From Thermoplasmata archaeon (GTDB taxonomy: Archaea; Thermoplasmatota; SW-10-69-26; JACQPN01; JAJPHT01): a DNA stretch of 18,039 bases. The notes beneath the pieces are model-generated. The model was not told the DNA's origin and ran no database searches. It saw only the letters and a program-made list of their open reading frames with translations. Below, in pieces: positions 3,498-18,039 of the stretch; within the stretch, counting starts at the first letter, position 1; each line of letters begins with the position of its first letter. The translations under genes and the position numbers were made by a program. The stretch spans positions 1 through 18,039 of the forward strand of contig JAXDQU010000091.1 in the NCBI GenBank assembly GCA_034667685.1, given 5' to 3'.

Positions 3498-3902
3498 CTA
3501 CGCGAGCGGCCGGCGCTCCAGCCCGTCGACGGCATCGAAGTCCGCGTCGTCCGAGACGACGGTGAAGATGCCGGCGCCCATCGCCGTGGCCGCGTGGATC
3601 GCGTCGCGCGGCGAGAGCTTGCGGTGCGCGCGCATGAGGTCGAGCGCGGCGCGGACCTCGGCGTCGCGGACCGGCAGGATGCGCAGGCGCGGCAGGCCCA
3701 GGACGAGCTCGGCGTGCCGCAGCGCGACGTCGCGCCCCGCGTTCTTCCCCACGACCCAGAGGACCTCGTCGAGGGTGAGCGAGGACGTGGCCGCGTGCTC
3801 CTTGCCGGCTTCGAGGCGCGCGAGGAGCGCCGCGGCCGCGTCGGACTTGGGGCCCGTGTGGAGGACGGGATAGATCAGGACGTTGGCGTCGAGGTAGAGC
3901 AT
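3498..3902 (-). CDS. vapC: VapC-family PIN-domain toxin
   Basis: YLDANVLI, TLDEV, SPRDAIHAATA and VSDDADFD provide the acidic PIN active-site residues. 134 aa, 4 bp downstream of an AbrB-type gene. Confidence 0.93.
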   Translation of the reverse strand: MLYLDANVLIYPVLHTGPKSDAAAALLARLEAGKEHAATSSLTLDEVLWVVGKNAGRDVALRHAELVLGLPRLRILPVRDAEVRAALDLMRAHRKLSPRDAIHAATAMGAGIFTVVSDDADFDAVDGLERRPLA

Positions 3903-3906
3903 GCTC

Positions 3907-4152
3907 TCACTTCGCGCCGAAGCGGTCGCCGTACTCCGCGTCCCAGTCGATGCGCGCGGGCTCCTTCCGCTTGCGCGGGACGAGGCTGCGCATCTCGTCG
4001 ACGACGTGCCCGCGGAACGCCTTCTCGATGATGACCTTGCCGTCCTCCACGTGGAAGGCGAGCGTGTCGCCCGGCGCGATGCCCGCGGCGTCCCGCACGG
4101 ACTTCGGGATGACGGCCTGACCCTTCTCTCCCACCCGCGCGGTCTCGGTCAT
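3907..4152 (-). CDS. AbrB/MazE/SpoVT-family antitoxin (VapB-like)
   Basis: ARVGEKGQAVIPKSVRDAAGIAPGDTLAFHVEDGKVII is a typical swapped-hairpin AbrB domain. 81 aa, directly upstream of the PIN toxin. Confidence 0.92.
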   Translation of the reverse strand: MTETARVGEKGQAVIPKSVRDAAGIAPGDTLAFHVEDGKVIIEKAFRGHVVDEMRSLVPRKRKEPARIDWDAEYGDRFGAK

Positions 4153-4185: not shown

Positions 4186-5037
4186 CTATGGCATGACTTC
4201 GACCCCGTACACGCGCTTCGGGTTCTCGGCGTGGACGATCCACGCCTGCTCCTCGGTCATGAGCCCCTTCGCGATCAGGTCGGCTGTGCGTCGCGGCACG
4301 GTCTTGGGCCCGAGCACCGCGCCCGGGTAACGCGGGTCGCACATGAAGTCCGTCTCCATGAGGAAACGCGTGCCCTGGCGGATCGCGTCCTCCGCGCTGC
4401 CCTTGCCGATGAGCACGCTGGGCCAGAGGCCGCGGTTGAGCGCCGGGTCGAGGATCGGCGCGCTGTAGTGCTTCACCGCGCGCTCGGCCGGCAGGCCCGC
4501 GGCGGCCAGGTGCGCAGCGAGGTCGGCGAAGCTTTCCGGCGTGGTCGTCTCGGCGTGGATCTGCACGGGGCAGCCGGCGTCCGCCGCGAGGGCGAAGGCG
4601 TGCTCCATGAGCGCGTTGGCGCGCGCCATGATCTCATCCGGGACCGGGCGCCAGTGGGGGCGGCCCACCTCGGCCATCGCGACGGCCTTGCCCGCGCGCA
4701 CGAGCTTGGCGGCCGCCTCCTGCGCGCCGCGGTGGATCGCCTCGGCCTCGTCCATCGGCACGCCCGCCGTGAGCAGGCTCGTGAACTCGGCCGGGTGCGG
4801 GCTGATGGCGACGTGGACCTTCAGGCCCAGCGCGCGCGCCTTGTCGGCCATGTCGAGCGTGATGCCGAACTGGCGCTCGTGGTCGGCGACGCTGCGGTTG
4901 ATGCCCGCGCCCTCGTGGTAGGGCTTGTGGACGAGCATGACGTGCGTGCCGCCCGCGTTCAGGAAGTCCTTCACCGACTGCTCCCACGGGCCCGCCGGAT
5001 CGAGGTGGAAATGGTCGTCCCACACGGGATATCGCAT
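4186..5037 (-). CDS. TatD-related metal-dependent hydrolase (archaeal MJ0761/COG1831-like)
   Basis: DDHFHLD (HxH), SPHPAE, AEVGRPHW, VQIHAE, VKHYS, FLMETDF and RYPGAVLGPKTVPRRT. TIM-barrel amidohydrolase pattern, 283 aa. Confidence 0.88.
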   Translation of the reverse strand: MRYPVWDDHFHLDPAGPWEQSVKDFLNAGGTHVMLVHKPYHEGAGINRSVADHERQFGITLDMADKARALGLKVHVAISPHPAEFTSLLTAGVPMDEAEAIHRGAQEAAAKLVRAGKAVAMAEVGRPHWRPVPDEIMARANALMEHAFALAADAGCPVQIHAETTTPESFADLAAHLAAAGLPAERAVKHYSAPILDPALNRGLWPSVLIGKGSAEDAIRQGTRFLMETDFMCDPRYPGAVLGPKTVPRRTADLIAKGLMTEEQAWIVHAENPKRVYGVEVMP

Positions 5038-5362: not shown

Positions 5363-5686
5363 TCACCCGATCGGGGGCGGCGGCCCCTTGCGCTTCTCCG
5401 CCTTGCTCGCCTTCACCTGCTGCGCGATGACGCCGCGCTTCCCCTTCGGCGGGGGCGGGGGGGCCGCGGTCTTCTTCTGCGGGAGCAGGCCGAAGAGCAG
5501 CATGCACGCGGCCACGAGCCAGACGAGGTACGCGAGCGGCTCGTTGGGATACCGGTAGACCCACCAGCCCAGGAGCGCGACGAGCCCCGCCGCGACGGCC
5601 CAGAAGAGGATCTCCAGCCAGCGCCCGTAGGGGGGCGTGTGGAACGCCTCGATGAGGCGGCTGAACGGCCCGGGGCGCGGCGGCAT
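5363..5686 (-). CDS. Small membrane protein (2 TM helices, Lys/Pro-rich cytoplasmic tail), 107 aa
   Basis: Likely start at ATG 5686 (MPPRPGPF...). Hydrophobic segments ILFWAVAAGLVALLGWWVY and LAYLVWLVAACMLLFGLL. Confidence 0.75.
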   Translation of the reverse strand: MPPRPGPFSRLIEAFHTPPYGRWLEILFWAVAAGLVALLGWWVYRYPNEPLAYLVWLVAACMLLFGLLPQKKTAAPPPPPKGKRGVIAQQVKASKAEKRKGPPPPIG

Positions 5687-5749
5687 CAGGCTCCGGAATT
5701 CGTGGTCCCGCTTGGCGTTTGCGCCCCTCTCCCGGCAGCGGGCTCGTGG

Positions 5750-5810
5750 CGCCAAGCTTCACGTCTCCGCTTCGCCGGCGTGTTGGCGTGTCCGCGTGTT
5801 GGCGGCAGCG
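5750..5810. repeat. GGCGTGTT-family 8-bp tandem units with a degenerate inverted left arm
   Basis: GGCGTGTT GGCGTGTC CGCGTGTT GGCG at 5777-5804. CGCCAA at 5750-5755 pairs with TTGGCG at 5799-5804. 5778-5810 matches 9770-9803 at 30/34. Confidence 0.7.
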
Positions 5811-5903
5811 CCGGGCCGCCACGGCGCGGATGAACCATCACGGGAAAAGTCGGACTCGACGCCGCGCACAGGCTTCATGCTCCCGCGCCCGCGTGCCCCG
5901 CGC

Positions 5904-7817
5904 GTGCGCCGCGTCCTCGCCCTCTTCCTCCTGACCTGCCTCCTTGCGGGCTGCGTGTCGTTGCCCGGCGCCACGACCCAGGCCCCCGCCAATGCCGCGC
6001 CCGCGCTCGTCGCCGAGGGCGCCACGCTGCGCGCGGTGGGCGACGGCGTCTTCGCGACGTGGGGCGGCAACGTGACGTTCGGCTCCTCCTCGGCGCCCGC
6101 CTCGCTGCCCGTCGACCCGACCGCGACGCCGGCCGGAAGCGTCACGAAGCCGTTCACGTGGCCCGCGGGCGCGACGATCCTCGAAGGCTGGCTCAACTGG
6201 ACCGACGGCAAGGCGGTGCTCGCGCTGCGCGTCAACAACGAGAGCGGGCGCACGTGGTGCGGCGCCCCCTTCCCGAGCAACGTGAGCGACGCGCGCTGCT
6301 TCGCGACGTTCTACCGCCAGCCCTTCGGCGACCCGTCGAAGTGGAAGGCCGTCGTCTCGCCCAACTCCTACGACGGCGCGGCGCCCGGCCCGATCCCCTT
6401 CACGCTGACGCTGCTCTTCCGGAACGCGACGCTCCCGATCCTCGACTCGCCCGCGCCCGCGGGGGCCGACGCGCCGCTCGTCTTCGCGCCCACGACGCTC
6501 GTCTCGAAGGACAAGCACACCGGCGAGCCCTCGCTCGCGCTGACGCCCAAGGGCACGGTGTACGTCGCGGCGCCCACCGGCGCGCAGGAGTCGCTCTTCC
6601 GCTCGACCGACGGAGGCAAGACGTTCGGCCTCGTGAAGATCCACGACAACCCGACCCGCGACCCCACGAGCGAGTTCGCCACCGGCGGAGGAGACTCCGA
6701 CGTCGCGGTCGTCGGCGAGAACGATCTCTACTTCGCGGACCAGCAGGGCGGCAGCGCCGAGACGGTGAGCAGCTCGCACGACGGGGGCGCGACGTGGTTC
6801 ACGCAGCCCGCCGCGGCCGGCCCGCCCTCGACGGGCGGCATCCCGCGCCCCGCGCCGCTCCCCGTGGGTCTCCCGGGCGCGCCGGTCTTCAGCGCGGACC
6901 GCCAGTGGCTCGTGGCCGACGGGAGCATGGACGTCTGGCTCGCGTTCAACTCGCAGGACGGCGCGACGGTGGTCCACTCGCTCGACGGCGGCCGCACGTG
7001 GCCCCAGCGCGGCACCATGGGCGGCGACGACTGCTCGCGCGGCAACCTCGTGCGCAGCGTCGCGAGCCCCACCGGCGTCCCTGTCGCGGGCGGCGGCTGG
7101 CTCTACTTCGCGGGCTGCAACGAGAAGGGCCCGCTGCTGGGCGTCAGCACCGACGGCGGCCTCACGTGGACCACGCACCAGGTCGCGCAGCGCGACGGCC
7201 AGACCAGCACGGGCTTCCTCTTCGTCACGCACATCTTCGTCATCGCCACCACCGACGCCGCCGGCAACGTGTACGTCGTGTGGTGCGACGAGGCCGACGC
7301 GCCCGGCGACCACGCCGCGCCAGCCGACGGCCCGCACGGCGTCAACGTCTGGTTCGCCAGCAGCACCGACCACGGCGCGACGTGGAGCAAGCCCCTGAAG
7401 GTCAACCAGGCGCCGGGCACGTACGTCCTCCCGTGGGTCACCGCGGGCAAGGCGGGCCACGTCGCCGTCGCCTTCTACGGCACCAAGGCCGGGCCGAACC
7501 CCGAGCGCATCGTGGGCGACTGGTACCCCCTCGTGGCGACGACGGACGACGCCACCGCCCCGACGCCCACGTGGCGCTGGAGCACGATGGGCGACATGAT
7601 CCAGTACGGCCCCGTCTGCATGCGCGGCTCCGCCTGCGGCAACGCGCGCAACCTCCTGGACTTCTTCCAGATCCAGGCCGACAAGGATGGCATGATCCAC
7701 GCGACGTTCATCGACGGCCGGAACGGGGGCAACGCGCGCAACGCCGACATCCTCTACACCAGCCAGGTCGGCGGGCCCGGCCTCGGGGGACCCAGCGTCG
7801 ACAAGAATGGGGGATAG
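5904..7817 (+). CDS. Secreted lipoprotein with BNR/Asp-box repeats (sialidase-like beta-propeller), paralog 1
   Basis: Signal peptide with lipobox-like LLAGC (GTG 5904 or ATG 5877 start). Asp-boxes STDGGKTF, SHDGGATW, SLDGGRTW, STDGGLTW and STDHGATW. Confidence 0.85.
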   Translation: MRRVLALFLLTCLLAGCVSLPGATTQAPANAAPALVAEGATLRAVGDGVFATWGGNVTFGSSSAPASLPVDPTATPAGSVTKPFTWPAGATILEGWLNWTDGKAVLALRVNNESGRTWCGAPFPSNVSDARCFATFYRQPFGDPSKWKAVVSPNSYDGAAPGPIPFTLTLLFRNATLPILDSPAPAGADAPLVFAPTTLVSKDKHTGEPSLALTPKGTVYVAAPTGAQESLFRSTDGGKTFGLVKIHDNPTRDPTSEFATGGGDSDVAVVGENDLYFADQQGGSAETVSSSHDGGATWFTQPAAAGPPSTGGIPRPAPLPVGLPGAPVFSADRQWLVADGSMDVWLAFNSQDGATVVHSLDGGRTWPQRGTMGGDDCSRGNLVRSVASPTGVPVAGGGWLYFAGCNEKGPLLGVSTDGGLTWTTHQVAQRDGQTSTGFLFVTHIFVIATTDAAGNVYVVWCDEADAPGDHAAPADGPHGVNVWFASSTDHGATWSKPLKVNQAPGTYVLPWVTAGKAGHVAVAFYGTKAGPNPERIVGDWYPLVATTDDATAPTPTWRWSTMGDMIQYGPVCMRGSACGNARNLLDFFQIQADKDGMIHATFIDGRNGGNARNADILYTSQVGGPGLGGPSVDKNGG

Positions 7818-7860
7818 CGGCGCAACAACGTTGATCCGGTCCGTCCGGCTCGGACCCGTC

Positions 7861-9684
7861 ATGCGCGCGCTCCTGGGGCTCCTGGCCCTCTCGCTCGTTC
7901 TTGCCGGCTGCATCGGCCAGCCCACGCTCCAGACGGCCTCGGTCGGCCCCGCGCTCCACGCGCCCCCGGCCCTGACCTCGGAGGGGGCGAAGGTCGCGGT
8001 CTCGGGCGACCAGACGCTCCTGACGTGGACCGGCCAGCTCACGCCGAACAACGCGCCCGTCTCCACGCCGCTCGTCGCGAGCGCGCAGGACTCGCTCTCC
8101 TACAAGGTCCACCTGCCCGCCGAGGCGCACCTGCTCCACGGCTGGATCAACTGGACCGACACGTCCGCGGCGCTGTTCTTCTTCCTGGACGACAAGGACG
8201 GCCCGATCTGCGGCGCCGCCTCGCCCGAGGGCACCACCAGCGAGTGCTTCGCCACGCTCTACGGCGCGCAGGCCGCGGCGCGCGACGCCACGCTCACCGT
8301 GAGCCTCTCGGGCGGCAACGCGCCCGTCGCGTTCACGCTGACGCTCCTCGCGAGCAGCCTGGACCTGCCGATGCTGGGCAGCCCCGCCCCGTTCGGCCCC
8401 ACGGCGCCCAGCGTGTTCGCGCCGCCGGTGGTGGTCGACCCGCAGCGCCACACCGCCGAGCCCTCGATCGCGGTGACGCCCAAGGGCGTCGTCTACGTGG
8501 CCGCGCCCGTCGACGCGCAGAGCGCGCTCTGGCGCAGCACGGACGGCCAGAAGTTCGCGTTCGTCCCGATCCACGGGCAGCCCACCGACCCGCTCAGCCA
8601 GGACCCGATCGGCGGAGGCGACGCGGACGTCGCGGTCTCCGGGGAGAACGACGTCTACTTCGCGGACCAGGGCCTGGGCGAGGCCGTCTCCGCGAGCCAC
8701 GACGGGGGCAAGACGTTCTTCACGCAGCCCCTCGGCTCCGGCGTGCCGCTCACCGACCGCCAGTGGCTCGTCCTCGACGGCGGCATGAACGCCTGGCTCG
8801 CCTTCAACGGGCCCAACGGCGCCACGGTCAGCCAGACGCGCGACGGCGGCCACGCCTGGGTCGCGCTGGGCAGCATGAAGGAGGACTCCTGCTTCCGCGG
8901 CAACCTCGCCCGCGCGCCCGACGGCACGCTCTACTTCGCCGGCTGCGACGCCAACGGACCCGGCGTGGGCGTGAGCACGGACGGCGGCCTCTCGTTCACC
9001 TGGCACGCGGTCGCCAAGCGCGACGGCAAGACCAACACGAGCTTCCTTTTCCCCGCCCACATCTTCGTCGTCGCCACCACCGACGAGAAGGGCAACGCGT
9101 ACGTCGCCTGGAGCGACGAGGCGCAGAACCCCGACGATACGAAGGCGCCCGAGGGGCCGCACGGCCTCAACGTCTGGATGGCGAGCAGCAAGGACCAGGG
9201 CAAGACGTGGAGCAAGCCGCAGAAGGTCAACCAGGCCCCCGGCACCTACGTCCTTCCCTGGATCACCGCCGGCAAGGAAGGCCAGGTCGCGGTGTCGTTC
9301 TACGGCACCAAGTTCGTCGGCCACCCCGAGCGCGTGATCGGCGAGTGGTATCCGCTGGTGGCGATCACGCACGACGCCCTGGACGCCAACGCCACGTGGC
9401 AGGAAAGCGCCGCGAGCCCCGACCTCAACCAGTACGGCCCCGTCTGCATGCGCGGGAGCGGCTGCGGCAACGCGCGCAACCTGCTCGACTTCTTCCAGAT
9501 CCAGGCCGACAAGGACGGCCTGCTCCACATGGCGTACGTCGACGGCACCGGCGGAGGCAGCTACGTCAAGTCCACCATCATGTACGCCGGCCAGGTCGGC
9601 GGCGTCGGGATCGGCGGGCCCAGCGTCGACAAGAACGGCGGGCCGAAGGCGCAGCCGATCCTCCGGCTGCCGGCCACGCCCTAG
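7861..9684 (+). CDS. Secreted lipoprotein with BNR/Asp-box repeats (sialidase-like beta-propeller), paralog 2
   Basis: MRALLGLLALSLVLAGC signal/lipobox from ATG 7861. Asp-boxes STDGQKF, SHDGGKTF, TRDGGHAW, STDGGLSF and SKDQGKTW. Colinear with paralog 1. Confidence 0.87.
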   Translation: MRALLGLLALSLVLAGCIGQPTLQTASVGPALHAPPALTSEGAKVAVSGDQTLLTWTGQLTPNNAPVSTPLVASAQDSLSYKVHLPAEAHLLHGWINWTDTSAALFFFLDDKDGPICGAASPEGTTSECFATLYGAQAAARDATLTVSLSGGNAPVAFTLTLLASSLDLPMLGSPAPFGPTAPSVFAPPVVVDPQRHTAEPSIAVTPKGVVYVAAPVDAQSALWRSTDGQKFAFVPIHGQPTDPLSQDPIGGGDADVAVSGENDVYFADQGLGEAVSASHDGGKTFFTQPLGSGVPLTDRQWLVLDGGMNAWLAFNGPNGATVSQTRDGGHAWVALGSMKEDSCFRGNLARAPDGTLYFAGCDANGPGVGVSTDGGLSFTWHAVAKRDGKTNTSFLFPAHIFVVATTDEKGNAYVAWSDEAQNPDDTKAPEGPHGLNVWMASSKDQGKTWSKPQKVNQAPGTYVLPWITAGKEGQVAVSFYGTKFVGHPERVIGEWYPLVAITHDALDANATWQESAASPDLNQYGPVCMRGSGCGNARNLLDFFQIQADKDGLLHMAYVDGTGGGSYVKSTIMYAGQVGGVGIGGPSVDKNGGPKAQPILRLPATP

Positions 9685-9823: not shown

Positions 9824-10573
9824 TCACTTGCAGTTCGAGATCGCCTGCTGCGACGCCTCGTGCCGCACCGTGCAGCCGTGCGCGCTGCCCGCGGCGGCCA
9901 CGAAGAAGGTCGTCGCCTTGCCGTCGTCGAAGGCGCGCGCGACCGCAAGGCCGTCGCCATCGAGGTCCGCGGCCGCGGTCCCGTTCGCGACGCGCGTCGT
10001 GCCCTTCAGCTTGTCGCGGCCGAACGTGACGGCCAGCGCGGGGTTCGAGCACGGCGCGGGCCAGCACGAGCCGCTCAGCGCGACGTCCGGCGCGCCATCG
10101 CCGTCGAGGTCGCCCGCGGCGGTGCCGTTGTACGCCAGGTTCGGGCCCGCCGCGTCCACGGTCCAGTGGGGCGTGACGTTGTACGCGGCGCCCGCCGGGC
10201 CCTGCCCGGTGTCGCCCACGATCGCGCAGCCGTCGACCGCGCAGTGGAACGTGCCGTTCGCGCTGCGGTCGAGCCCGCCCGGGATCGGCGCCTCGGAGGC
10301 CTGCCCGTGCGTCGTCGAGTTGGCCTGCCGCGCCTGCCCGTCCCACGAGTCCTCGTGGGTGACGCCGCCCTGCGTGTAGTTCCACGCGACGGCGCACGCG
10401 GTCGGGTTCGCGGGGCCGCAGGTCGTCGCGGCCCAGGCGTCCGCGCGCCCGTCGCCGTCCACGTCGCACCCGTAGACGGTGCCCTTGCGGCCGGGCTGCG
10501 CGCCGCAGGAAGGCGCGGCCGCCGCGAGAGGAATGCAGAGGAGCAGGGCAAGGGCGATCGGGAGCAGGCGCAT
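9824..10573 (-). CDS. Secreted Cys-rich protein with DxDGDG (FG-GAP/calcium-blade-like) motifs, 249 aa
   Basis: Signal peptide MRLLPIALALLLCIPLAAA from ATG 10573. Motifs DVDGDGRAD, DLDGDGAPD and DLDGDG. 10 Cys in the mature part. Confidence 0.75.
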   Translation of the reverse strand: MRLLPIALALLLCIPLAAAAPSCGAQPGRKGTVYGCDVDGDGRADAWAATTCGPANPTACAVAWNYTQGGVTHEDSWDGQARQANSTTHGQASEAPIPGGLDRSANGTFHCAVDGCAIVGDTGQGPAGAAYNVTPHWTVDAAGPNLAYNGTAAGDLDGDGAPDVALSGSCWPAPCSNPALAVTFGRDKLKGTTRVANGTAAADLDGDGLAVARAFDDGKATTFFVAAAGSAHGCTVRHEASQQAISNCK

Positions 10574-10620
10574 GCGCGGGGCAGCACGGAGGACCACATG
10601 GTCGTTCTCCGGAGGCCGTG

Positions 10621-10741
10621 TTCGAACCCGTCCCCGCTTCCGATTCCGATTCCTCTTCCGATTCCGCTTCCGACTTCCGACCCGGGAATCGGAAGTCGGA
10701 AGCGGAATCGGAAGAGGAGTTGGAATCGGGGACGGGTCGAA
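10621..10741. repeat. 121-nt hairpin made of TTCCGA/TTCCGC 6-7-bp units
   Basis: Perfect 30-bp arms at 10651-10680 and 10689-10718 with an 8-nt loop. Outer arms TTCGAACCCGTCCCC / GGGGACGGGTCGAA. It lies between divergent genes. Confidence 0.92.
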
Positions 10742-10742
10742 C

Positions 10743-10750
10743 CTTAATAC
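10743..10750 (+). promoter_or_regulatory. TATA-like box of rfcS
   Basis: CTTAATAC lies ~26-33 nt upstream of ATG 10776, the spacing expected for a leaderless archaeal transcript. Confidence 0.6.
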
Positions 10751-10775
10751 CCAAAGTGGTCCCTGCCCGCGCCCT

Positions 10776-11741
10776 ATGGAAGAGATCTGGGTCGAGAAGT
10801 ACCGGCCCCAGAAGCTGGGCGACATCATCGGCCAGGAGGAGATCACGAAGCGCCTCCAGGCCTACGTCGCGCAGCGCAACATGCCCCACCTCCTCTTCGC
10901 GGGCCCGCCCGGCACGGGCAAGACCACGAGCGCCGTCGCCCTGGCGAAGGAGCTGTACGGCGAGACGTGGCGCGACAACTTCGCGGAGCTGAACGCCTCC
11001 GACGAGCGCGGCATCGGCGTCGTGCGCGGCCGCATCAAGGACTTCGCGCGCACCGCGAGCCACTCGCAGGACATCCCGTTCAAGATCATCTTCCTCGACG
11101 AGGCGGACTCGCTGACCAACGACGCGCAGTCGGCGCTGCGCCGCACGATGGAGAAGTACGCGGGCAACTGCCGCTTCGTGCTCTCGTGCAACTACAGCAG
11201 CAAGATCATGGACCCGATCCAGTCGCGCTGCGCGCTGTTCCGCTTTCGGCCCTATGGCAAGCCCGACATGACGAAGCTCGTGCGCAAGGTCGCGCGCGAG
11301 GAGAAGATCGACGTCACGCCCGACGGGCTCGAGGCGCTGCTCTACGTCGCCGCGGGCGACATGCGCCGCGTCGTCAACACCATGCAGGTCGCCAGCGCCG
11401 GCAACAAGCACGTCACGGCGGAGAGCGTCTTCACCACGACCGCCACCGCCAAGCCCGAGGACGTCAAGCAGATGCTCGAGATGGCGCTCACCGGCAACTT
11501 CGCCGCGGCGCGCGACAAGCTCGACGAGCTGCTCATCGGCTACGGCCTCAGCGGCGAGGACATCATCCGCCAGATCCACCGCACCGTGTTCGACCTGACG
11601 GTCCCCGACAAGATCAAGGTCGACCTCGTCGAGCGCGTGGGTGAGGCCGACTTCCGCCTCGTCGAAGGCGCCAACGAGCGCATCCAGATCGAGGCGCTGC
11701 TGGCGCGATTTGCGTTGACGGGCGGGTCGCTCAAGATCTGA
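10776..11741 (+). CDS. rfcS: Replication factor C small subunit (clamp loader)
   Basis: MEEIWVEKYRP, Walker A GPPGTGKT, ELNASDERG, Walker B IIFLDEAD, SRC arginine finger, GDMR. 321 aa, no intein. Confidence 0.97.
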   Translation: MEEIWVEKYRPQKLGDIIGQEEITKRLQAYVAQRNMPHLLFAGPPGTGKTTSAVALAKELYGETWRDNFAELNASDERGIGVVRGRIKDFARTASHSQDIPFKIIFLDEADSLTNDAQSALRRTMEKYAGNCRFVLSCNYSSKIMDPIQSRCALFRFRPYGKPDMTKLVRKVAREEKIDVTPDGLEALLYVAAGDMRRVVNTMQVASAGNKHVTAESVFTTTATAKPEDVKQMLEMALTGNFAAARDKLDELLIGYGLSGEDIIRQIHRTVFDLTVPDKIKVDLVERVGEADFRLVEGANERIQIEALLARFALTGGSLKI

Positions 11742-15145: not shown

Positions 15146-15298
15146 ATGCCCGACGAGGAGCTGCCCGAGCTGACGAAGCTGCGCGCCTACGACCGCCAGG
15201 AGCACATCCGGCGCGCCATGGACGCCGGCATGACCCGCGAGCAGGCGGAGCGCCACGCGGACGAGGACTTAAGGGAGCGCGCCGACTCGCGGGCCTGA
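15146..15298 (+). CDS. Small charged hypothetical protein, 50 aa
   Basis: MPDEELPELTKLRAYDRQEHIRRAMDAGMTREQAERHADEDLRERADSRA. TGATG overlap with the next gene, good codon bias, T-rich box ~27 nt upstream. Confidence 0.65.
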   Translation: MPDEELPELTKLRAYDRQEHIRRAMDAGMTREQAERHADEDLRERADSRA

Positions 15299-15915
15299 TG
15301 GCCTTCCAGTGCCCGCCCGACTGCGGATGGTGCTGCACGCACCTGACGCGCCAGGTGCCGCGCGAGGAAGCCCGCGCCACGGGCGCCTTCCGCGCCGCCC
15401 TGCGCGAGATGGGCGTCTACCATTGCCGCGACGCGGTCACGACCGGGCTTTCGCTCTCGAACGCGGAGGCCGACGCGCTGCGCCGACGCGCCGCCGAGCG
15501 CCGGATGCGCCTGCCGCTCCACCCGCGCACCTACCTCCTGGAGACGCGCCGCCGCCTCGCGGTGGTCCTCGACTGGCACCTCTCGCGCGAGGTCTGCCCC
15601 TTCTACGCCGACTACCAGTGCACGGTCTACGAGGACCGGCCGCTCGTCTGCCGCGCGTTCCCCGTCATGGTCGCGAGCCCGATGTCGCTCGCGCCCGCGT
15701 GCCCCAAGGTGCCCGCGCCCGCCAGCGCCATGCGCGTGGAGCTGCGCGCCCGCCGCGCCATCGACCGCGCGCACGCGAGCCTCGACGAGACGGCCATGCG
15801 CGCGCTGGCGGGCGGACGCTTCGCCGAGGGGCTCGCCCCGGCCGAGGCCGCGCGCCGCCTGCGGCGTTACCGCCCCGTGGCCGTGGAGGCGTTCGTCGGT
15901 GAGCAGCCCGCGTGA
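15298..15915 (+). CDS. YkgJ-family cysteine-cluster protein (CxxCxxCC, putative Zn/Fe-S)
   Basis: FQCPPDCGWCC, then CPFYADYQCTVYEDRPLVCRAFP and a later CP. Confidence 0.88.
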   Translation: MAFQCPPDCGWCCTHLTRQVPREEARATGAFRAALREMGVYHCRDAVTTGLSLSNAEADALRRRAAERRMRLPLHPRTYLLETRRRLAVVLDWHLSREVCPFYADYQCTVYEDRPLVCRAFPVMVASPMSLAPACPKVPAPASAMRVELRARRAIDRAHASLDETAMRALAGGRFAEGLAPAEAARRLRRYRPVAVEAFVGEQPA

Positions 15916-16150
15916 CACGCTCAACCAGCTCAAGTGGCGCGAGCACGCGCTGGCGCGCTGCGAGATCGAGTACGTGCACCGTGGCGCTCCTGGAGACACG
16001 CGCATCGTTTCGGGCGCCGACGTCCGCGAAGTCGGATCGTGGGCCTTCGTCCTGGGCGAGGGGGCGCGCGAGGCCACGATCCCGTACCATCGCGTGCTCC
16101 GGATCACAGTCGGCGGCGAGGTCGTGTGGGCGCGCGCTCCTGCCCGATGA
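15899..16150 (+). CDS. DUF504/UPF0248 (MJ1316-like) protein
   Basis: RDTLNQLKW, YVHRGAPGD, IPYHRVLRI and VVW fit the archaeal DUF504 signature. GTG start overlaps the YkgJ gene by 17 bp. Confidence 0.85.
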   Translation: MSSPRDTLNQLKWREHALARCEIEYVHRGAPGDTRIVSGADVREVGSWAFVLGEGAREATIPYHRVLRITVGGEVVWARAPAR

Positions 16151-16167
16151 CGATGCCGGCGCGGGGC

Positions 16168-16259
16168 CGCCTCCGGCGGGAAAAATCACGGAATCTCCGA
16201 ATCACCGAATCGGGCGGAGATCCCGTGATCCGGAGATTTCGTCCTTTCCGCCGGAGGCG
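16168..16259. repeat. 92-nt hairpin with AATC(A/T)C(C/G)G 8-bp units
   Basis: Perfect 12-bp outer arms CGCCTCCGGCGG (16168-16179 / 16248-16259). Inner AATCACGG AATCTCCG AATCACCG face GGAGATCC CGTGATCC GGAGATTT. Confidence 0.85.
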
Positions 16260-16330
16260 AGCGGAGCCAGCCAACGTCCGCGGAACCCTCCTCCCCAACC
16301 TTTGTGCATGCCCTCGAGCGTGCGCGCCCG

Positions 16331-18004
16331 ATGCAGCAGGTTGTGCAGGACGAGCTTCACGAGATCGCGAGCCTTCCGTGGCCCCCGATGCGGCACGTGC
16401 GCCGCGGCATGGCGCGCCTCGACGAGCGGGGCCAGCGCCTCGTGGCGGGGAGGCTCCGCGCCGCGCTCGCGCAGTTCGAGCCGGCGCCCGGCGTGAACCG
16501 CGCCGCGTTGCGCCGCTTCTTCAGCTTCCTCTCGCAGGTCGAGGTCATCGCCATCGAGGTGCCGCTGTCGGCTCTGCCAACGGCGGCTCCCGAGGTCGTG
16601 CCGCTGCTGGAGCGCCAGCTCGCCGACGAGGTGTTCCACAGCACGGTCTTCGCGGCGCTCGCGCAGAAGCTCGGCGGCCTCGACGCGCCGATCCCCGAGG
16701 CGGAGCGCGTGCTCGACGAGATCCGCCAGCAGGAGGACCCCAAGACCACGGCCGTGCTGCTCAACCTCATCGCCGAAGGCTGGATCGAGAACCTCTTCGA
16801 CCAGGCCGTCGGGTGGGGCGCCGCGGACGAGGTCTTCCGCATCGTGCTGGAGGACGAGAGCCGGCACGTCGAGGAGGCGCACGCGCACGCCGAGGGGCTT
16901 GACATCACGCGGGTCGGCGCCGCGGTGCGCGAGTTCGAGGAGCAGCTCTTCCGCCTCTCGCAGCACCCGCGCGTGATGCTCCCGATCCTCGCGCTCGCGG
17001 GCGAGCAGCGCTTCCGCCAGCTCGCGCAGTCGTTCCTCGACACGCACAAGGCCGCGCTCGCCGAAGTGGGCCTGGAGATGGCGCCCGCGGTGAAGGAGAT
17101 GGAGGCGATCTTCGCCGAGATCGACACGACGCAGACGCTTCCTCCCGCGCGCGAGATCCCCTTCGACTCGCAGTGGCGCCGCACCGCGCTGGAGATCTGG
17201 GACACGCCGCGCAGCCCCGCGATGAGCGGCTGGTTCGAGGCGCGCGTCGACCACGTCCCGAAGCACCTGCTCACCGCGGTCATGGTCGCGGCGGTCGGAC
17301 AGGTGTACGCCGAGTTCCCGCGCGTCAACCGCTACGTGCAGGGCGGCAAGCTCTGGCAGCCCGCGACGGTCAACGTCGGCGTGCGCGCCGGGCTGGGCGA
17401 CCAGGGCGAGGCGCTCACCACCATCGTCGTGCCGCAGGCCGACAAGCGCAGCGTGGAGGACATCCGCCGCATCGTGCGCGAAGGCGTCGCCAACATGAAC
17501 GCGCTGGGCGCCGCGATCGCGCGCCCGCAGCCCGACGCCGAGCAGGAGCCCCTGCGCCACGTGCTGCGCGATGAGGAATTGGCCGGCATGCTCCCGCCCG
17601 GCAGCGTCGCCGCGCCCGTCACCGTGAGCAACGCGGGCAAGGTCGGCCTGCACGCGGGCTTCGGCGCGATGCCCGGCGCGCTGGGCCAGAGCCTGGAGAT
17701 CATCATCGGCCGCGTCGAGAAGAAGCCGCAGTGGACCGGCTGGCGTTACCGCCCCGTCGACACGATCGTCGTGGGCTGCACGGCCGACCACCGCGTCGTC
17801 GACGGCGCGCACACCGGCGAAGCGATGCGCCGTCTCCGCGAGGCCCTCTCGCCCGAAGGCGTGCAGAAGATCCTCGACCGCCCCGACACGCTCACCCCCG
17901 AGGAGCTGTCCCAGGTGGCGAAGGCGCAGCAGCAGGGCGCGATGCTCATGGCGTGCAAGGCGCCGTGGTATCTCGGGTGGCTCTGCTGGCTGTTCAAGAA
18001 GTGA
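16331..18004 (+). CDS. Fusion protein: N-terminal ferritin-like diiron domain plus C-terminal 2-oxoacid dehydrogenase E2/CAT-like acyltransferase catalytic domain
   Basis: Two E...ExxH repeats (QVE...DEVFH; IAE...DESRH). C-terminal VTVSNAG and DHRVVDG (17786-17806). No lipoyl domain. ATG 16331 is preferred because of the T-rich box at ~16300-16305. Confidence 0.82.
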   Translation: MQQVVQDELHEIASLPWPPMRHVRRGMARLDERGQRLVAGRLRAALAQFEPAPGVNRAALRRFFSFLSQVEVIAIEVPLSALPTAAPEVVPLLERQLADEVFHSTVFAALAQKLGGLDAPIPEAERVLDEIRQQEDPKTTAVLLNLIAEGWIENLFDQAVGWGAADEVFRIVLEDESRHVEEAHAHAEGLDITRVGAAVREFEEQLFRLSQHPRVMLPILALAGEQRFRQLAQSFLDTHKAALAEVGLEMAPAVKEMEAIFAEIDTTQTLPPAREIPFDSQWRRTALEIWDTPRSPAMSGWFEARVDHVPKHLLTAVMVAAVGQVYAEFPRVNRYVQGGKLWQPATVNVGVRAGLGDQGEALTTIVVPQADKRSVEDIRRIVREGVANMNALGAAIARPQPDAEQEPLRHVLRDEELAGMLPPGSVAAPVTVSNAGKVGLHAGFGAMPGALGQSLEIIIGRVEKKPQWTGWRYRPVDTIVVGCTADHRVVDGAHTGEAMRRLREALSPEGVQKILDRPDTLTPEELSQVAKAQQQGAMLMACKAPWYLGWLCWLFKK

Positions 18005-18005
18005 C

Positions 18006-18039
18006 GGAAAGAGGAAGCGGAATCGGAAGCGCCGCTTCC
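18006..18039. repeat. Truncated TTCCGA/GGAATC-family hairpin at the window end
   Basis: GGAAGCGGAATCGGAAG (18013-18029) is identical to 10698-10714. GGAAGCG-C-CGCTTCC (18025-18039) shows the turn of the hairpin. Confidence 0.8.

Follow-up and report, generated by a model that had tools for sequence, protein, structure and literature searches.

The 18,039-base window analyzed here is one whole contig (C91) of a Thermoplasmata archaeon genome (3.48 Mb, 71% G+C, estimated to be 99% complete), and the gene at its end encodes a 557-residue protein composed of three parts: an N-terminal ferritin-like diiron domain, a C-terminal catalytic core of the kind found in the E2 acyltransferases of 2-oxoacid dehydrogenase complexes, and a Trp-rich C-terminal tail. 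We consider that this protein is probably a bifunctional diiron oxidase/oxygenase and acyltransferase and not the E2 subunit of a complex; the assignment of any particular class of substrate is a good deal more doubtful. Both domains are of known kinds, and what is new is their fusion, the apparently membrane-anchored archaeal form and a clade of the family that resides in phage tail modules.

The protein is translated from an open reading frame (ORF) at 16331-18004 on the plus strand that contains no internal stop. Frame +2 is open from 16304 to 18004 and has an in-frame GTG at 16304 as an alternative start, which appears less likely than the ATG at 16331 given that homologues begin at the ATG position. 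The G+C content at third codon positions is 0.96, typical for real genes on the same contig. The fusion is not a missed stop, a chimera or an assembly artefact, because homologues share the same single-frame architecture and invariant active sites. A missed stop or assembly error had been named by an earlier note on this DNA as something that would refute its own proposal of a diiron-E2 fusion. A public contig of 2352 bases from a possible source sample covers 16100-18026 with zero differences. Two independent soil runs (X3 and X4) yielded fragments alone, none bridging the domain junction, and it is the homologues, not reads, that support the fusion independently. The full-length model, built from an alignment of 43 rows, has a mean predicted local distance difference test score (pLDDT) of 81.2 and a predicted template modelling score (pTM) of 0.81, and pLDDT values below 50 are restricted to residues 1-3, residues 449-452 and the tail at 535-557.

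A word-indexed search of 5.8 billion proteins returned 45 relatives, nearly all 553-579 residues long, that cover 97-100% of the query and have the same architecture. The 43 full-length homologues were aligned, leaving out the partial sequences P0020, P0034 and P0046. The six candidate metal ligands (E71, E100, H103, E149, E176 and H179) are invariant in all 43, as are D486, H487, R488, D491 and G492 of the acyltransferase motif and a further set of residues in the diiron domain (Q96, D99, E153, D175, R178 and E182); S433 and N434 are conserved in at least 90%. Mean pairwise identity is 0.60 over residues 1-262 and 0.59 over residues 293-520, and the two domains are thus equally constrained. 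In species-representative genomes we located 17 loci, each a single-frame tblastn segment, labeled as Thermoplasmatota/Thermoplasmatales (14), "Halobacteriales" (2) and "Deltaproteobacteria" (1). Two relatives have one in-frame stop each inside the diiron domain (L002, 10451-10453; L015, 10445-10447), at positions that correspond to a Gln in a near-identical protein and to the invariant W162; the stops are unshared, and both copies may be pseudogenes or sequencing errors. Selenocysteine insertion or other recoding was rejected for them, given that the stops fall at different, non-Cys positions.

The ligand pattern that the earlier note had read in the N-terminal half, E71-x28-E100xxH103 followed by E149-x26-E176xxH179, is present with its His codons starting at 16637 and 16865. 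That note had made its reading depend on conserved ligands and on a four-helix bundle; the first is seen in the alignment, and the second is supported by a model of residues 1-275 (43-row alignment) with a mean pLDDT of 90.6 and a pTM of 0.89 and by fold matches to diiron proteins. In a Foldseek search of the PDB with this domain, all 49 of the matches listed are diiron or dimanganese carboxylate proteins (PaaA-like proteins, ribonucleotide reductase R2, R2lox and aldehyde-deformylating oxygenase, ADO), at weak E-values of 2.5e-3 and up. An exhaustive VIA-align comparison of the domain with 48,161 chains ranks ADO-active ferritin-like proteins first (Z 18.6, root-mean-square deviation [rmsd] 3.4 A, 203 residues; with the full-length model included, 5ux2 and the cyanobacterial ADO entries span Z 18.6-20.0 and rmsd 3.1-3.4 A), followed by methane monooxygenase hydroxylase (Z 16.3) and R2lox (Z 15.3), with CmlI (Z 10.0), AurF (Z 9.2) and the Dps and bacterioferritin types (Z 8-9) farther away. 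The Z range of 14-20 that spans the ADO, methane monooxygenase hydroxylase, R2lox and R2 matches confirms the four-helix-bundle core, and the ADO matches include palmitate-bound entries. Alignment of the whole domain onto ADO suggests that the six ligands would be clustered in space.

The sequence signal of the N-terminal half is faint but consistent. AurF (PF11583) is detected in 6 of the 43 members, with a best E-value of 4.3e-4, and ribonucleotide reductase R2 in 3 of the 43; the family profile also matches a 306-residue PDB chain named bacterioferritin (9viw_A, E 3.8e-4). PF11583 does not match the window protein, and the scores of members and relatives all fall below its gathering cut-off of 29.6 bits (18.8-25.6 bits in the relatives). 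No match to the ADO Pfam family was found in the 43 members at E-values up to 5, and we do not place the protein in the ADO sequence family. We rejected two other assignments: the heme-oxygenase-like diiron oxidase fold, to which CADD and TenA belong and for which Z is only about 9-10, and a CylC-type halogenase, whose motif differs.

The C-terminal half has a much clearer sequence affiliation: PF00198 (2-oxoacid dehydrogenase acyltransferase catalytic domain) is the sole Pfam family found, with an E-value of 2.4e-13, and NCBIfam returns E2 matches only, far below threshold. Comparison with E2 cores gives a Foldseek E-value of 3e-10 and VIA-align Z-scores of 19-20 (rmsd 2.3 A over 184 residues), and in the full-length model residues 50-258 match ADO as well as residues 292-517 match E2 cores, both with Z 19-20. 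The earlier note's description of this half as a lipoyl-less E2 core with intact motifs is upheld, with VSNAG at residues 432-436 and DHRVVDG at residues 486-492; the latter supplies the catalytic His and Asp of the HxxxDG motif of E2/CAT-type enzymes, and the Ser at position 433 is conserved in the archaeal clade only. By analogy with E2 cores, the C-terminal domain may be trimeric.

Several observations argue that this core does not serve a dehydrogenase complex. The protein has no match to the lipoyl domain (PF00364) at E-values up to 1 and no Pfam match to the E3_binding domain, and no E1 or E3 gene is linked to it in the window or in 13 other loci; for the protein and the window this agrees with what the earlier note had claimed. 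In the same genome, contig C37 encodes a canonical, lipoyl-domain-bearing E2, contigs C38 and C23 carry the two E1 alpha genes, and contig C111 has further lipoyl domains. The C-terminal half is 26% identical to this canonical E2 over 179 residues, and its DHRVVDG aligns with the DHRWIDG of the latter. Given the missing lipoyl and E3-binding domains, the canonical E2 and pair of E1 alpha genes encoded elsewhere and the low identity to that E2, we take the protein for a paralogue that has diverged from E2 cores and does not serve as the E2 of any complex. The earlier note had called the enzyme unexpected in an archaeon; this does not hold for the E2 itself, which is unsurprising here given the canonical lipoylated E2 and the E1 genes, and it does hold for the fusion. 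The note had also foreseen that automated pipelines would mislabel the protein, and the three relatives with NCBI names are all called [quoted passage not shown].

The two domains are joined by a conserved inter-domain arm, and the full-length pTM of 0.81 suggests that they may pack against each other in a defined way. The diiron domain is preceded by an N-terminal extension in which W17, G26, L30, V38 and R41 are invariant and P18 and P19 are at least 90% conserved; it is found in the archaeal clades and in a clade of about 600 residues introduced below and is absent from the phage clade, whose matches begin at about positions 30-50 of the profile. The aromatic tail that the earlier note had considered a plausible membrane binder (CKAPWYLGWLCWLFKK, residues 542-557) is present and conserved: the consensus of the last 17 or so residues, SCK[AL]P[FW]WLGWLCWLFKK, is nearly identical in P0002-P0040, despite a full-length identity of only 50-80% among these proteins. 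In the full-length model the tail has pLDDT values below 50. In the deep archaeal-type clade, P0042, P0043 and P0045 (not P0044) have a strongly hydrophobic segment in place of the tail (19-residue Kyte-Doolittle average of 1.8-2.06). The tail is therefore probably a conserved membrane tether, interfacial in the window protein's clade and transmembrane in the deep clade. P0042-P0044 have a Cys-rich C-terminal end, and DUF5763 matches 3 of the 43 aligned members. Members of this deep clade (P0042-P0045; loci L004, L005, L008, L009, L011, L013 and L014) have long C-terminal extensions, which in P0042-P0045 include low-complexity sequence.

The family is not specific to archaea and also occurs in Legionella and in phage tail modules. 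A profile of the N-terminal domain alone, made from 15 sequences of the window and the loci (L002 and L015 were left out for their internal stops), matched 130 of 1.84 billion cluster representatives at E-values up to 1e-3 and 97 at E-values up to 1e-10, and the family comprises at least 130 clusters at 50% identity. A Pfam scan of 111 representatives found PF00198 in the C-terminal half of 50 and a lipoyl domain in none. The same two-domain design recurs in two further clades, of about 600 and about 450 residues, and in an alignment of 91 superfamily sequences of at least 400 residues both the ligands and the acyltransferase motif are widely kept (Table 1). All six ligands and the Asp-His pair occur together in 58 of the 62 proteins of the 450-residue class, 60 of which have the Asp-His motif, and in 12 of the 19 of the 600-residue class. 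In a maximum-likelihood tree of 69 rows (a quick search with SH-aLRT support only, unrooted and with long-branch joins flagged), the 600-residue and 450-residue clades each have a support of 100 and two archaeal-type groups lie between them with supports of 95 and 93. Both active-site signatures have been under long-term selection in three clades. Within one subclade of the 600-residue class (P0064, P0079, P0114 and P0130, support 100), the catalytic His was lost from every one of the four proteins and the metal ligands from three of them; this co-loss hints at an interdependence of the two sites.

The 600-residue representative P0067 represents 117 sequences that bear Legionella pneumophila names and are labeled "2-oxo acid dehydrogenase subunit E2" or "putative CoA-dependent acyltransferase". 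In the ESM Atlas, the cluster nearest to the window protein is one of 596 residues with 146 members, mostly from Pseudomonadota (537 residues aligned, template modelling score 0.73). The complete genome of Legionella oakridgensis encodes a stand-alone N-terminal domain of 291 residues (P0069/P0192), which could be a split, truncated or independent form of the 600-residue clade. The nearest stand-alone relatives have AurF or DUF455 (PF04305) signals below the curated cut-offs.

The 450-residue clade is viral. A metagenome scan with 10 closer sequences gave 12 loci and a scan of IMG/VR gave 12 viral contigs, two of which equal two of the metagenome contigs in length and are probably the same records. 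All seven of the metagenome loci scanned with PHROGs have virion or tail neighbors (central tail fibre J, tape measure, tail fibre, tail-fibre assembly or internal virion protein), and so do seven of the nine scanned IMG/VR loci; an endolysin gene lies one to three genes downstream in two of the nine (L045 and L047), and L046 has nucleotide-metabolism and membrane-protein neighbors instead. Clustering of the neighbors by BLAST in 17 phage-class loci (among L033-L056) reveals three linked families, a large protein and two small ones (Table 1). The order of the two small genes is variable, and neither product matches a family in Pfam or PHROGs. The proteins of the phage loci are scattered over the whole 450-residue clade in the tree. 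The window protein, P0116, P0067 and six phage-locus copies match no family in PHROGs; a tblastn search with P0116 found no match in 50,697 cultured phage records, and a fold search of BFVD with the full model returned weak ribonucleotide reductase R2 rows only, with no two-domain viral match. A scan of IMG/VR with the archaeal alignment gave one locus, of the phage class, and no viral copy of the archaeal clade with those patterns.

Table 1. Coordinates and conservation of features of the window gene, and genes linked to its relatives in other loci
Feature	Position	Strand or side	Basis and remarks
Whole gene	16331..18004	+	557 codons + stop, ATG at 16331
N-terminal extension, residues 1-49	16331..16477	+	three helices, alignment and model
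Ferritin-like diiron-carboxylate domain, residues 50-258	16478..17104	+	model, VIA-align, Foldseek
Ligand codon E71 (helix 1)	16541..16543	+	invariant 43/43; E in 84/91 of superfamily
E100-V-F-H103, first ExxH	16628..16639	+	invariant; Q96 and D99 invariant before; E100 86/91, H103 88/91 of superfamily
Ligand codon E149 (helix 3)	16775..16777	+	invariant; 86/91 of superfamily
E176-S-R-H179, second ExxH	16856..16867	+	invariant; D175 invariant before; E176 88/91, H179 89/91 of superfamily
Inter-domain arm, residues 259-291	17105..17203	+	W282, R283, W290 invariant
E2-type acyltransferase catalytic core, residues 292-517	17204..17881	+	PF00198, E 2.4e-13
S433-N434 of TVSNAG motif	17627..17632	+	aligns with TITSLG of canonical E2
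DHRVVDG, residues 486-492	17786..17806	+	invariant 43/43; D486 85/91, H487 80/91, R488 82/91 of superfamily
C-terminal extension, residues 518-557	17882..18001	+	last 16 residues (17954-18001) Trp/Cys-rich
Radical-SAM neighbor, deeper archaeal clade	L004:11793-13451, L005:12921-14579, L007:8568-10223, L013:12501-14159, L008:13008-14666		
Large protein, one BLAST family	14/17 phage-class loci	upstream	scanned members mostly tail/J-like fibre PHROGs
Beta-rich protein, about 160 residues	11/17 phage-class loci	beside gene, either side	
Coiled-coil protein, 110-220 residues	8/17 phage-class loci	beside gene, either side	

The archaeal gene is an accessory gene that represents an insertion/deletion polymorphism within the genus, given its absence from a syntenic site in a same-genus genome and its patchy distribution. 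Of 401 genomes sampled from the phylum, 12 match the N-terminal profile, the window's own included, and the matches fall in three families (f1, 1 of 8 genomes with the window's genome left out; f6, 2 of 6; f30, 8 of 19); none of the four other genomes of the same genus, which are 86-94% complete, has a match. In one of these (G108, locus L064, contig C32, 13000-21000), the HxlR, CxxCxxCC and MJ1316-domain genes found at 15298-16150 in the window are syntenic at 82% nucleotide identity, with one extra gene of 298 codons and a convergent gene of 426 codons in place of the gene studied here.

The intergenic space immediately upstream contains a palindromic repeat of about 95 bases (16164-16260), whose predicted fold is a single long hairpin (-61.3 kcal/mol, z -4.0). 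Counting both strands, the repeat is matched 70 times over many contigs of the genome, and a same-genus genome has more than 20 matches. It reaches the gathering score of no Rfam family and looks like a miniature inverted-repeat transposable element or a repetitive extragenic palindromic (REP)-like element. The contig ends 35 bases after the stop codon (18005-18039), perhaps inside another copy of this repeat.

The CxxCxxCC gene upstream (15298-15915) was rejected as a redox partner, as it is kept in the same-genus genome without the fusion gene and has no counterpart in the other loci. In several loci of the deeper archaeal clade, a radical-SAM protein of 551-552 residues is encoded convergently downstream (Table 1). 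One copy has a weak B12-binding/radical-SAM signal, the 552-residue form has no PDB sequence match and no NCBIfam name, and the linkage may be simply inherited synteny. Elsewhere in the window, a PIN-domain toxin gene (134 codons) and a MazE/AbrB-type antitoxin gene (81 codons) lie adjacent at 3498-4152 on the minus strand, beside a TatD-type nuclease gene (4186-5037). Two large genes with overlapping ends occupy 5637-9684 on the plus strand, one encoding 726 residues with BNR/Asp-box repeats and the other 625 residues without a Pfam family, and a gene for the small subunit of replication factor C (10479-11741) lies downstream of them.

From these features we infer a mechanism, including its metal content, its use of O2 and acyl-CoA, the coupling of the two sites, its trimeric and membrane-bound state and the class of its substrate. 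The protein would consist of an O2-activating diiron-carboxylate domain of the ADO, R2 or monooxygenase type joined through the conserved arm to the E2/CAT-type core. The diiron site would bind two Fe ions, or Mn and Fe, and activate O2, and the His-Asp pair of the core, together with the Ser in the archaeal clade, would transfer an acyl group, in either direction, between a CoA-type thioester and an acceptor, while the Trp-rich tail would hold the enzyme to the membrane on its cytoplasmic side. The diiron site might oxidize a hydrophobic acyl substrate, either an acyl-CoA or an acceptor linked to the envelope or to a lipid, in a reaction of the hydroxylation, desaturation or deformylation type, and the same substrate stream might be acylated or trans-acylated at the E2-type site of the same polypeptide. 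We favor a hydrophobic, envelope-related substrate because the closest structural relatives of the N-terminal domain hold long alkyl chains, because the archaeal protein has a probable membrane tail, and because the phage copies lie between host-recognition and lysis genes. Acyl-CoA metabolism is well represented in the genome (11 acyl-CoA dehydrogenase and four AMP-binding matches). More tentatively, the family might be an unrecognized superfamily of coupled diiron-oxygenase/acyltransferases common to Thermoplasmatota, Legionella and tailed phages, in which the archaeal member would be membrane-anchored, the phage enzyme may remodel an envelope lipid or glycan or the tail fibre, and the cellular forms may perform the same envelope tailoring.

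We are cautious about this proposal on several grounds. Most genes near the archaeal relatives have housekeeping roles (GluRS, FolD, HAD hydrolase, Sec61-beta, H+-PPase and peptidases), and conservation of the neighborhoods does not extend from one clade to another. The earlier note had suggested a search for the architecture and its neighborhoods; the architecture does recur in homologues, and a linked reductase, carrier protein or acyl-CoA ligase was not found among the conserved neighbors. The phage context of a tail fibre, a beta-rich protein and a coiled-coil protein suggests no small-molecule pathway. Apparently stand-alone N-terminal domains exist, and the diiron domain may therefore be able to act without the other half; joint loss of the two sites is confined to a single lineage and counts as one event, and P0170 is a counter-example that has no ligands and yet keeps the Asp-His pair. 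The Ser is not conserved outside the archaeal clade, the hydropathy of the window protein's tail is moderate (15-residue Kyte-Doolittle average of about 1.0-1.5), and the membranes of archaea are made of ether lipids, for which an acyl-lipid substrate is not obvious.

Of the other explanations, the one we take most seriously, though we think it unlikely, is that only the diiron domain is catalytic and that the E2-type core is a trimerization or assembly scaffold whose DHRxxDG motif has a structural role or holds a ligand that it does not turn over. E2 cores, many of which appear in the fold matches, are obligate trimers that build cages, and the E3-binding protein (E3BP) of eukaryotic pyruvate dehydrogenase is a precedent for a scaffold; the restriction of the Ser to the archaeal clade, the stand-alone N-terminal domains and the position of the phage gene among structural, threefold-symmetric tail proteins fit this explanation as well. 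However, of 91 sequences across clades that are less than 30% identical, 80 retain the His and 85 retain Asp 486, the C-terminal domain is as constrained as the N-terminal one, and human E3BP has lost its catalytic His. Slightly less probable still is a protein substrate, such that the enzyme hydroxylates and/or acylates tail-fibre proteins in phages or an envelope protein in the archaeon. The large protein of one family (tail or J-like fibre in most of the scanned members) beside the gene in 14 of 17 phage loci, the linked pair of small non-enzymatic proteins (11 of 17 and 8 of 17 loci) and the predicted membrane tethering of the archaeal protein are in keeping with such a role, whereas for both domains the nearest relatives in structure have small molecules or lipoyl or CoA arms as their substrates, and the archaeal neighborhoods point to no target protein.

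We regard a role with 2-oxoacid dehydrogenases or lipoate as improbable. Under this explanation a free lipoyl protein or dihydrolipoamide would be bound in trans by the E2-type domain, and re-oxidation of the dithiol by O2, or some other service to the complex, would fall to the diiron domain. The explanation draws on the Pfam family of the C-terminal half, on the two E1 alpha genes found in the genome against one canonical E2, and on an E3-like flavoprotein encoded three genes upstream in L002. It has to contend with the lack of lipoyl and E3-binding domains and of E1/E3 linkage in the window and 13 other loci, with an identity to the canonical E2 of only 26%, with the presence of the gene in 12 of 401 genomes of the phylum and its absence from four of four same-genus genomes, and with relatives in phage tail modules. 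Iron storage or detoxification by a ferritin-like domain mounted on an E2-type cage is very improbable: E2 cores can form cages and the profile weakly matches the bacterioferritin-named chain 9viw_A (E 3.8e-4), but the fold ranks with substrate-oxidizing enzymes (Z 18.6 for ADO, 16.3 for methane monooxygenase and 15.3 for R2lox) and not with the Dps and bacterioferritin types (8-9), and the acyltransferase motif is conserved. In addition, the model places the C-terminal extension at the site through which E2 cores contact neighboring trimers. An artefactual fusion, whether from a frameshift, a stop that was missed or chimerism in the assembly, is refuted for practical purposes; the gene does lie at the very end of the contig, with 35 bases left, and L002 and L015 have one in-frame stop each, but the single-frame architecture recurs in 43 homologues from many assemblies, in 17 genome loci and in two more clades, the public contig spans the whole ORF without a difference, and the full-length model is confident.

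If the protein is the bifunctional diiron enzyme and acyltransferase that we propose, its design suggests a new coupled reaction in which O2 is activated beside an acyl-thioester tunnel. Every named homologue is labeled as a pyruvate or 2-oxoacid dehydrogenase E2; these labels are automatic, and they mislead the metabolic reconstruction of Thermoplasmatota and Legionella. The phage clade presents a conserved, enzyme-looking gene between tail-fibre and lysis genes and offers a tractable route to its role in infection. Should the shared superfamily be real, viruses would carry an O2-dependent acyl-transferring enzyme in a late operon near the tail fibre that determines host specificity, and the reaction would be of a type without characterized precedent. 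Full-text searches, judged mostly from listings and abstracts, found no description of a diiron-E2 fusion.

Among known systems, the N-terminal domain most closely resembles cyanobacterial ADO (4rc5, 4kvq and 5ux2), with which it shares a ferritin-like bundle of about 200 residues, a two-His/four-carboxylate site arranged as E, ExxH, E, ExxH, and a structural match over nearly the whole ADO chain. ADO structures have a long alkyl chain in the pocket, as the titles of the entries state. Unlike ADO, to which it is only 16-19% identical in structural alignments, the protein has an extra N-terminal extension of 49 residues, the acyltransferase fusion and a probable membrane tail, and the window, to which this search was confined, encodes no acyl-acyl carrier protein reductase partner. 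AurF/CmlI-type N-oxygenases (PF11583) and DUF455 proteins (PF04305) are related through the sub-cut-off Pfam signals in the family; AurF and CmlI differ in their weaker fold match (Z 9.2 and 10.0, respectively) and in an extra His before the second ExxH that the protein lacks. The CylC/NocO diiron halogenases are likewise ferritin-like diiron enzymes and act on a carrier-tethered fatty acyl thioester, according to the excerpted text of PMC12101540. Their motifs are given there as QExxH and HxxDExxH, the excerpts mention no acyltransferase domain, and we set these enzymes apart on the basis of this description of their motifs.

The C-terminal domain resembles the E2 cores of solved structures (3mae, 4n72/7b9k, 1eaa and 3l60) in its Pfam family, PF00198, in its fold (Z 19-20, rmsd 2.3-2.7 A over about 185 residues) and in its TxSNxG and DHRxxDG motifs, which align with those of the solved E2s and of the genome's own E2. 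In contrast to these cores, it is found without a lipoyl domain, a peripheral-subunit-binding domain or linkage to E1 and E3, and it has an insertion at about residues 395-420 and a C-terminal extension of 40 residues. The actinobacterial OdhA, as portrayed in excerpted descriptions, provides a precedent in domain organization, in that a lipoyl-less E2o core is fused to another catalytic domain, E1o. The partner in OdhA, however, is a thiamine diphosphate-dependent E1 that stays within the 2-oxoglutarate dehydrogenase reaction, whereas the partner here is a diiron oxygenase-type domain.

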